DNA from: Escherichia phage HK3
Sequence record: PP526765
Reading direction: 5' to 3' (one strand)
Length of the DNA stretch: 64,000 bases
Positions 41,262 to 43,043 of the stretch are shown piece by piece (the first letter of the stretch is position 1; each line of letters opens with the position of its first letter). A program made the translations under genes and the position numbers. The notes under the pieces were generated by a model, which worked only from the letters and a program-made list of their open reading frames with translations, was not told the DNA's origin and did no database searches.

Positions 41262-41785
41262 TTCCATACCAAACCCTACCTTACCACACCATACCATACC
41301 AAACCCGACCAAACCCGACCGAGCATCGCTTAAAAATCCTCTTAGAAGACTCTTAAGTGATGTAATCGAATTTTAATGTAGCTCCGATTAACTACCCATA
41401 CCTCACCTTACTTAACCGTACCGCACAGAACCACACCAAACCTAACACCACTTCTCATCACCTTATTAAAAACCATGTTTAAAGACCTTTTAAAAAGATG
41501 AGTCTCATTTTAATGTAGATGAGACTAACTACCCACACCAGACCTAGCCTTGCCTTACCATACCGAACAATACATCACAATACATCACTTAAAAATCCTC
41601 TTAGAAGACTCTTAAGTGATGTAATCGAATTTTAATGTAGCTCCGATTAACTACCCATACCAGACCGCACCAGACAAAACCACGCCAAACCGCACCTTAC
41701 CCAACCTTACCACACCAGACCCAACCTTATTAAAAGACCATGTTTAAAGACCTTTTAAAAAGGAGCCTCCGAAGAGGCTACCTAG
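41262..41785. repeat. tandem about 260-bp repeat units (x2) with identical 74-bp cores and strand-biased CA-rich tracts
   Basis: exact 74-bp direct repeat at 41329-41402 and 41588-41661; second conserved element CCTTATTAAAA..CATGTTTAAAGACCTTTTAAAAAG at 41461-41497 and 41725-41762; tracts almost devoid of G/T. Confidence 0.8.
41756..41779 (-). terminator. rho-independent terminator downstream of 41791..42231 gene
   Basis: minus-strand hairpin AGCCTC-TTCG-GAGGCT followed by TTTTT. Confidence 0.6.
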
Positions 41786-41790
41786 TCAAC

Positions 41791-42231
41791 TTAGAAAGGT
41801 TTTCTACGTTGCTTGTTAATGTTAGCTTTCATAGCAGCTAAATGGTTTTGCTGTTCAATCAGTCGTGAACGTTCTTGATGACTAAGTGCCATAGTGTTCA
41901 CATTCTCAATCGCTTGAGTGGCTTGCTTTAAAGCACGACCAATCTTACCAGACATTTTACGTTTTGCAATAGTTGCTTGATGCTTAGGTTCAACCACACG
42001 ATAGCCAACACCCATTGAAGCAACCAGATAAATCTTCTCTTCTTTAAGAAGCTTCTCAATAAACTTCTCAAGTCGGTTTAGACGTGTAAGCGCATAAGCC
42101 TTCATTTCATCTTCGTACTTAACAATGTCACCTTGATAAGTTGGCTTCACAATACCTAAGAAGGTGTCCATCTCAGAATGTGATACCGTGTCACCGTAAC
42201 TGAACTTTGCTGCTAATGCTTTTGTATTCAT
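41791..42231 (-). CDS. hypothetical protein (repeat-flanked cassette gene 2)
   Basis: 146-aa ORF; no motif recognised. Confidence 0.5.
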   Translation of the reverse strand: MNTKALAAKFSYGDTVSHSEMDTFLGIVKPTYQGDIVKYEDEMKAYALTRLNRLEKFIEKLLKEEKIYLVASMGVGYRVVEPKHQATIAKRKMSGKIGRALKQATQAIENVNTMALSHQERSRLIEQQNHLAAMKANINKQRRKPF

Positions 42232-42233
42232 AA

Positions 42234-42836
42234 TTAAACGTTACCTTCTGAAATAACTTCTACAGAAAAACGACCAAAGCGTGGACGCCAATCACCTACA
42301 CCGCAAAGGTTACCAGCATTTTCCAGAACCATCAAGAGTTCCTCTTTGGTGATTTGCTCTTCATCGAACATCAAACCAAACTCTACAGACCAGTCACGGA
42401 AGATTGGACGGTAGCTCATAACTCGTGCTGTACCAATCTTAACAGACTTAGCGTAGATAAAGTCTGGATTCTTAGCAAGTTCTTGTGGGTTTGCTGGACA
42501 GTTCTTGATAGTCATTGGGAAGACTACATCTGTCAGCATAATGGCTCGGTCAATTACCTTACCAAGTTTGTTGAGTTTTGCACCAGACTTGATGCAAGCC
42601 TCAATCATCTCACCGTTCATAACAAAACCTAGCTGCTCATCGTAGTAACAAGAGGTTACCAGTTGACTTTCTGCTAAGAGCGCATAGTCTTCGTCAGTCT
42701 TTTTACGTTTACTGGACAGAGACTTGTGATATTTTGTCAGAGGGTTTAATGGGTCTGACAGCGTATCGTTATGGCTCAAGAAAGGACGAGTACCAGTGAT
42801 TTTGACATTTAACAGTTTCATAGCATTTAGCTCCAC
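42234..42836 (-). CDS. hypothetical protein (repeat-flanked cassette gene 1)
   Basis: 200-aa ORF, GTG start; no motif recognised. Confidence 0.5.
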
Positions 42837-42915
42837 ACTTTAGTTTATTGTTAAGTTGTTTGTAAAGAACCCTCAACAGAAGACTCTTTAGAAACTTGGT
42901 AGATTTTTAACGTGG

Positions 42916-43043
42916 CTACTACCATCCACCCATACCGCGCCAGACCCTACATTACCAGACCATACAAAGCCATACCCAACCAAACACTACCGCACCATAC
43001 CGAACATCACTTAAAAACCCTCTTAGAAGACTCTTAAGTGATG
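42916..43043. repeat. third partial copy of CA-rich tract + conserved core
   Basis: CA-rich tract 42916-43009 followed by CTTAAAAACCCTCTTAGAAGACTCTTAAGTGATG (43010-43043), one mismatch to the 41329/41588 core. Confidence 0.75.

Follow-up and report, generated by a model that had tools for sequence, protein, structure and literature searches.

VIPR (Viral Interference Programmable Repeat) is a CRISPR-like system that was first described in 2026 preprints (bioRxiv 10.64898/2026.04.26.720920; 10.64898/2026.04.26.720927). Its components are a small RAMP-fold protein (Vipr), an accessory gene (vap), and vrRNAs composed of 9–16 YNNGG repeats and an invariant 3' tail, and the model locus is that of Escherichia phage SUSP1, in which one vrRNA lies upstream and three lie downstream of the genes (10.64898/2026.04.26.720920). 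In SUSP1, vrRNAs of ~100 nt are expressed and co-purify with Vipr, the ribonucleoprotein represses transcription, and the guides of the SUSP1 clade, defined by >90% identity to SUSP1 Vipr, are aimed at a satellite with a related tape-measure and baseplate gene (10.64898/2026.04.26.720920). Cryo-electron microscopy revealed one Vipr protomer per repeat, with GGY buried and NN presented, every third target base skipped, and the non-target strand wrapped by the RNA-DNA hybrid (10.64898/2026.04.26.720927).

The DNA analyzed here is a 64,000 nt stretch of Escherichia phage HK3, a Felixounavirus (sequence record PP526765; the whole stretch is referred to as the window). A repeat-rich locus within it, first noticed at 41262–43043, is almost certainly a type II VIPR of the SUSP1 clade. 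It comprises two protein genes, vipr (195 aa, RAMP fold) and vap1 (146 aa), with one vrRNA gene upstream of them and four more downstream. All seven genes are on the minus strand, and the locus occupies the same position as in SUSP1, between the genes for DNA ligase and a gp93-like protein. Besides this position, HK3 shares with SUSP1 both proteins, the YNNGG and hairpin-pseudoknot anatomy of the guides, a nearly identical vrRNA2, the satellite target class and the one-nucleotide-skip code. The kind of system is already known and explains the locus, which belongs to the SUSP1 VIPR clade and carries a set of five guides of its own.

Other close systems are the Class 1 CRISPR-Cas effector backbones, in which Cas7, Csm3 or Cmr4 form filaments on the CRISPR RNA, but with a period of 6 rather than 5 nt, and VIPR pairs only two of every five guide bases. 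HK3 also differs in lacking a repeat-spacer array and adaptation genes, in being phage-borne and in having guides that are individual genes. Of the hallmarks of CRISPR-Cas (identical direct repeats of ~25–40 nt, unique spacers and cas adaptation genes) none was found, and repeat searches returned vrRNA units only.

Proteins and guide RNAs of the HK3 locus

The first-pass annotation, made from the letters and a list of open reading frames, had placed two leftward genes at 42234..42836 and 41791..42231. Both reading frames are present, the start of the first more likely being the ATG at 42821, which is preceded by GGAG. The encoded Vipr is identical to SUSP1 Vipr at 190 of 195 residues (97%), well within the clade threshold, and shows the RAMP fold with its RRM core, G-loop and thumb. 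All eight residues listed as contacting GGY (H17, E71, M72, R138, C173, D177, W178 and R179; 10.64898/2026.04.26.720927) are present, with H17, R138, D177 and R179 invariant or nearly so across 61 relatives. Vap1, encoded directly downstream, is 99% identical to its SUSP1 counterpart and has 234 distant relatives.

Also noted in the first pass were an exact 74-nt repeat (41329–41402 = 41588–41661), a tandem duplication around it, and three copies of a core, each preceded by a tract nearly devoid of G and T. All of this holds. The 74-nt repeat is part of a 180-nt direct repeat (76% identical, 259-nt spacing); a 34-nt core starts at 41329, 41588 and 43010 (the last with one mismatch), where shuffles expect none; and tracts with <20% G+T on the top strand occur only at 41255–41330, 41646–41736 and 42926–43024 in the whole 64 kb (mean 0.50, standard deviation 0.07), the strong C-over-G skew being likewise confined to this locus. 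What had been missed is that the tracts repeat strictly every 5 nt, as (CCNNR)n when the top strand is read and as (YNNGG)n when the gene strand is read, staying in register for up to 80 nt, and that the tracts number five rather than three. The 74-bp core proves to be the 3' tail of one guide joined to the leader (type A) of the next. The hairpins with a conserved loop and variable stems were also correctly seen: TTTTAATGTAG occurs exactly three times (41371, 41508 and 41630) in hairpins with differing stems, a pattern that arises because these hairpins are the 3' tails of vrRNAs.

A tract finder that returned 12, 16, 15 and 7 units for the four SUSP1 guides found 15, 15, 7 (+3), 10 (+4) and 12 units in HK3, repeat tracts of the kind that marks vrRNA genes. 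HK3 vrRNA2 corresponds to SUSP1 vrRNA2 minus one unit. Comparison of 28 related loci gave a common grammar, which reads on the gene strand: ligase stop, promoter P1, leader (A or X), tract, tail B, (leader, tract, tail)n, tail C, two genes, terminator, leader X, tract, and so on to tail C2, followed by a hairpin with promoter-like P2 and the next gene. Leaders and tails are 95–100% conserved among these loci, while the tracts are unalignable even between phages with flanking genes 95–98% identical, although the pentamer frame is preserved in each of them. The information content of Y, N, N, G and G, calculated from 905 units in 73 unique tracts, is 1.49, 0.08, 0.12, 1.24 and 1.90 bits, all 16 NN dinucleotides are in use, and NN is hypervariable between near-identical phages (flanks 95–100% identical). 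Conserved GGY beside free NN indicates selection on a code, not on a sequence.

The tail is 33 nt long, and its four types align without gaps into a 6-bp hairpin and a 4-bp pseudoknot (GTAG/CTAC, GTGG/CCAC or AAGG/CCTT). In this alignment, 93% of cells are paired and eight of ten pairs have changed on both sides; none of 500 shuffles reached the observed value, and slid controls were only 27–51% paired, as fits the invariant tail of a vrRNA. The A leader folds as an 18-bp hairpin with four G-U pairs and, since it needs these, forms only in gene-strand RNA; it may be a 5' processing signal or site. The only Rfam match, to DUF2815 RNA at 41474–41535 (-), is below threshold (25 bits, gathering score 41.2, E = 0.085); it covers parts of the vrRNA3 tail and an X leader, and is most likely due to chance.

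Since the VIPR mechanism has been shown for SUSP1, whose proteins are so nearly identical, homology suggests that it would operate in HK3 as well. P1 would drive leader A, vrRNA1, vipr and vap1, up to the intrinsic terminator after vap1. One Vipr protomer would bind each pentamer, building a helical filament on each guide with GGY buried and the NN dinucleotides displayed; these would pair with double-stranded DNA, skipping each third target base (target xNNxNN...), on either strand and with no protospacer-adjacent motif. Binding of the filament to DNA would then block transcription, an effect that Vap1 would enhance.

Satellite islands as predicted guide targets

A baseplate-type gene of HK3 (27444–28241, +) matches 474 of 5,426 complete Escherichia coli genomes (9%), O157:H7 included. 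The matches sit in a ~12-kb island with a serine recombinase, a tape measure protein, an HNH endonuclease and mostly unknown genes, integrated at yciI/tonB, yecN/yecD (DUF72) or ymdF/wrbA. Both the tape-measure and the baseplate genes of the island have related counterparts in the phage. Between phage and island (satellites L151–L163) the gene shows ~92% DNA identity over 68–73% of its length, which points to recent exchange between helper phage and satellite.

Thirteen satellite loci (260 kb) were scanned, without gaps, for the NN code of each guide. With a 1-nt skip, vrRNA1 matches 27 of 30 NN positions within a 93-aa gene and vrRNA2 matches 26 of 30 near the start of the satellite tape-measure gene, in each case at homologous sites of several satellites; shuffling the order of units gave at most 23/30, and skip rules of 0, 2 or 3 nt gave 19–20/30. 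Codon position 3 is the one skipped in both targets. Units 1–9 of vrRNA5 match a divergent satellite at 17 of 18 positions, above all 100 shuffles. No self-target above chance was found in the 64-kb window, where four guides reach 67–75% and vrRNA3 reaches 12/14 (86%), within the range of shuffled seven-unit guides. Restriction to the 1-nt skip, a skipped base at the wobble position and the lack of self-targeting are together the marks of natural VIPR targets, and the matches of vrRNA1 and vrRNA2 show them; vrRNA3 and vrRNA4 have no significant target. Judged from these sequence matches, vrRNA1 and vrRNA2 are shown to be directed at the ~12-kb island present in many E. coli chromosomes, and vrRNA5 probably is too.

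The same pattern is seen in the family as a whole. Among 64 unique guides from 29 loci, 42 reach an NN match of at least 80% in the 13 satellite loci with a 1-nt skip, compared with one, none and two guides under the other skip rules and none when guides are shuffled. The published one-nucleotide-skip code is thereby reproduced from independent data. The element most likely switched off by the HK3 VIPR is this satellite, parasitic on the phage and resident in E. coli, and we infer that the biological role of the locus is repression of a parasite of the phage.

Several points weigh against this interpretation. The best match of vrRNA3 in the 13 satellites (13/14) is not above shuffles; no target of vrRNA4 turned up in these satellites, in IMG/VR or in a set of genomes with one representative per species; and exact-pattern scans of IMG/VR for targets of vrRNA4 and vrRNA5 returned none. 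Even the best natural matches are 87–90%, not perfect. The four downstream guides sit beyond the intrinsic terminator and no sigma-70-like promoter was found inside the array; the VIPR model accounts neither for their transcription nor for the A and X leaders. Expression, processing and loading of the five HK3 RNAs are presumed by analogy with SUSP1, and both source papers on VIPR are preprints. Finally, the DNA-binding nature of Vap1 is predicted: Pfam and PHROG annotation and a PDB profile search gave no Pfam or PDB sequence match, and a single-sequence structure model was of low confidence (pLDDT 68) and too weak for a fold search.

The features of the locus are collected in Table 1. The flanking signals have some further properties. 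The -10 region of P1 lies in a conserved hairpin (GGTGAGTA...TACTCACC; 43046–43085, -) at the transcript start, directly before leader A. At the other end, the array-end hairpin (41184–41231) encloses the -35 hexamer of the promoter-like P2, and could link the end of transcription of the guide array to the start of transcription of the downstream operon. The gene that follows (40756–41139, -; 127 aa) belongs to PHROG 4332 (function unknown), and its product has a signal-peptide-like N-terminus, MKKILLAAAMVMAMN. Genes neighboring the locus encode ligase, dihydrofolate reductase and thymidylate synthase.

Table 1. Features of the HK3 VIPR locus, in order of transcription; positions are those of the window.
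Feature	Position	Strand	Remarks
Promoter P1, sigma-70-type (TTGACA-16-TATACT)	43074..43101	-	11/12 consensus; just downstream of DNA ligase stop; in all 28 related loci
Leader A, copy 1, 39-nt hairpin abutting first repeat of vrRNA1	43005..43043	-	third core copy of the first-pass annotation
vrRNA1 guide, 15 YNNGG units	42930..43004	-	NN = TC AT GC AG TT TG AT TT AT CT AA AG CT GC AT
vrRNA1 3' tail, type C	42897..42929	-	hairpin TGGTAG/CTACCA and pseudoknot GTGG/CCAC; covariation test
vipr, 195-aa RAMP-fold protein that would polymerize on vrRNA	42234..42821	-	
vap1, 146-aa VIPR accessory protein	41791..42231	-	99% identity to SUSP1 gene downstream of vipr
Intrinsic terminator after vap1	41757..41779	-	AGCCTC-TTCG-GAGGCT, then T run
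Leader X, copy 1	41725..41756	-	variant of A in the same pre-guide position; overlaps first counted vrRNA2 unit
vrRNA2 guide, 15 YNNGG units	41655..41729	-	nearly identical to SUSP1 vrRNA2, one unit shorter
vrRNA2 3' tail, type B1, loop CTACATTAAAA	41622..41654	-	forms the 74-bp core with leader A, copy 2
Leader A, copy 2	41583..41621	-	
vrRNA3 guide	41533..41582	-	7 clean YNNGG units (41567–41533), preceded by 3 degenerate units
vrRNA3 3' tail, type B2	41500..41532	-	stem AGTCTCA/TGAGACT, then T run
Leader X, copy 2	41461..41492	-	coordinates approximate
vrRNA4 guide	41396..41465	-	10 clean units (41445–41396), preceded by 4 partly degenerate units
vrRNA4 3' tail, type B1	41363..41395	-	
Leader A, copy 3	41324..41362	-	
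vrRNA5 guide, 12 YNNGG units	41264..41323	-	
vrRNA5 3' tail, type C2	41231..41263	-	hairpin TGGCAG/CTGCCA and pseudoknot AAGG/CCTT; identical in 28 loci
Array-end 13-bp hairpin (AAATAAGCTATAA...TTATAGCTTATTT) and T run	41184..41231	-	overlaps P2 (TTGACA-17-TATTTT); conserved in all 28 loci

Other explanations of the repeats

The genome papers of Felix O1, wV8 and UAB_Phi87 do not discuss the repeats, and the first-pass annotation had offered a replication origin, a packaging site, stacked terminators or the boundaries of a mobile cassette as candidate roles. The last of these comes closest. The two genes do form an accessory module that is variably present in related phages: about half of the relatives have it and Felix O1 does not; the repeats, on the other hand, are working parts of the module and not just its boundaries. 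A stronger version would make them recombination modules, serving mainly for the gain, loss or swapping of the two-gene cassette. The PeSL cassettes of T4-type phages, reportedly consisting of a promoter and a stem-loop (Arbiol et al. are said to have described them in 2010), offer a parallel: they too are short, conserved non-coding modules, flank small accessory genes within a variable region and are plausible recombination substrates. In Felix O1, ASO1A and several IMG/VR genomes the genes are missing and only one or two units occur, while in other genomes the genes are surrounded by three to six units; the single unit of Felix O1 joins an upstream-type leader (A after P1) to a downstream-type tail (C2), as would follow from deletion between flanking units; and the number of pentamers shifts by slippage (e.g., GGTCA x3 versus x4). 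Nevertheless, recombination leaves unexplained the free NN beside fixed GGY, the covarying pseudoknot, the strict co-orientation with transcription and the 1-nt-skip matches to satellites, and PeSL are not known to have a periodic code, an associated RAMP protein or a match to foreign DNA. As an account of what the repeats are for it is very unlikely; recombination between units does seem to have shaped the locus, but is best regarded as a by-product rather than the function.

It is extremely improbable that the locus is an origin of replication, whether through iterons bound by an initiator or through an R-loop primer formed on a G-rich non-template tract behind a strong promoter. The setting would suit one: a strong promoter does read into the tracts, whose non-template strand is rich in G and poor in C, replication genes (ligase, polymerase) surround the locus, and it is unique within the 64 kb. 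Iterons, however, are 17–22 bp long and stand in helical phase, whereas the periodic unit here measures 5 nt, leaves two positions free, is strand-specific and runs in the direction of transcription. Neither an initiator gene nor an AT-rich unwinding element was identified, and the locus does not have the make-up of an iteron origin. Tract sequence and number vary freely between near-identical phages, the same arrays adjoin vipr homologues in unrelated viruses and also occur in non-replicating satellite islands, and the NN code matches foreign DNA.

A packaging site (pac or terminus) or a stack of transcription terminators is equally hard to credit: some deposited relatives (KhF3, allfine and EcoM2) are opened near the locus, but experimental mapping in the relative UAB_Phi87 put the 608-bp terminal repeats in another part of the genome, next to a wV8 gp055 homologue (PMC4837284), the corresponding locus being at ~58 kb of the UAB_Phi87 record, and although there are several hairpins, one of them annotated as a terminator by TransTermHP in ASO1A, only one is a canonical intrinsic terminator (41779–41757), the others having AT-rich stems and large conserved loops, mostly without a T run.

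Further ideas on the period-5 tracts were Rho rut sites on the antisense strand, two-tetrad G-quadruplexes or R-loop origins, RNA polymerase pause-site arrays, Chi-like or RecA-preferred GT tracts, TRAP-like or CsrA-type protein sponges, primase recognition sites and Shine-Dalgarno mimics. They were dropped because none accounts for both the satellite matches and the combination of fixed GGY with free NN.

Distribution, orphan guides and significance

Searches with tblastn found vipr in 131 phage records, 117 of them Ounavirinae with at least 90% identity, while the vrRNA region is present in all 230 of 230 related records. In about half of the Felix O1-like phages, Felix O1 among them, vipr and vap are missing but one or two orphan guides have been kept; the Vipr scan gave no match in the vipr-less IMG/VR genomes. 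Orphan vrRNA genes occupy the same site between ligase and the gp93-like gene, have the same promoter, and retain an intact leader, tract and tail. Single units are found in Felix O1 (L003, 2400–2683), L005, L006, L008 and L020, and two units in L010, L011, L018, L023 and L027. Guides of two-guide orphan loci match satellites at 25/28, 22/24, 26/30 and 23/26 positions, and the units of these loci show no more degeneracy than is seen where vipr is present.

Satellites carry a vrRNA of their own, with 10–14 units and a C-type tail with a changed stem (TTGTCG...CGAC): L151, 6869–6918 (-); L153, 5848–5902 (-); L159, 11597–11661 (+); L160, 9643–9712 (+); and L163, 9953–10017 (+). No vipr or vap homologue was found in the satellites, in agreement with a remark in the preprint, and a satellite vrRNA would therefore depend on the Vipr of the helper. 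A role for the orphan guides of phages can be put forward only tentatively and is rather unlikely: they could be loaded in trans on Vipr from a co-infecting phage, or act as decoys that titrate the Vipr of a rival. If so, guide RNAs alone would be a currency of phage-satellite conflict. The ordinary alternative is that the genes were recently deleted by recombination between flanking vrRNA units.

Arrays of this type extend beyond the Felix O1-like phages. A DNA-pattern scan of IMG/VR with (GGTNN)5GGT returned, among the matches listed, plain microsatellites and many unrelated viral contigs with sets of variable arrays, and a match to the Vipr profile adjoins 28 of 44 variable arrays picked by the DNA pattern alone, compared with 2 of 76 simple repeats. 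In unrelated contigs, tandem sets of 7–14 variable (GGYNN)n arrays directly follow a gene with the Vipr C-terminal motif (GIGDFRP...), for example in L064 (2200–3400) and L052 (3390–3840, minus strand), and also in L050, L060, L073, L079, L124 and L132. The punctuation between these arrays, such as GGTAAGGCTAATG or GGAATGGTTTAATGAATTTAATTT, is unlike that of HK3, and these contigs probably represent other VIPR types. A separate observation concerns GGTTAGGTTAGGTAAGGTTAGGTTAGGTAAGG, which recurs exactly in otherwise unrelated contigs (L033, L038, L049, L055, L075, L076 and three more); it is a coding repeat (VRLGKVRLGK in the protein) that mimics the pentamers, and constitutes a class of false positives for DNA-pattern searches for vrRNAs.

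VIPR is a newly described form of RNA-guided DNA recognition, in which two bases are read per five-base repeat and every third target base is skipped, and it has been proposed to be older than CRISPR. Its one-nucleotide-skip code has here been recovered independently from sequence data alone. For HK3, the gain is a set of five guide sequences and two concrete predicted targets in satellites. For the Felix O1-like phages in general, several of which are used or have been proposed for biocontrol, the VIPR label replaces "hypothetical protein" and "repeat_region" in more than 100 genomes.

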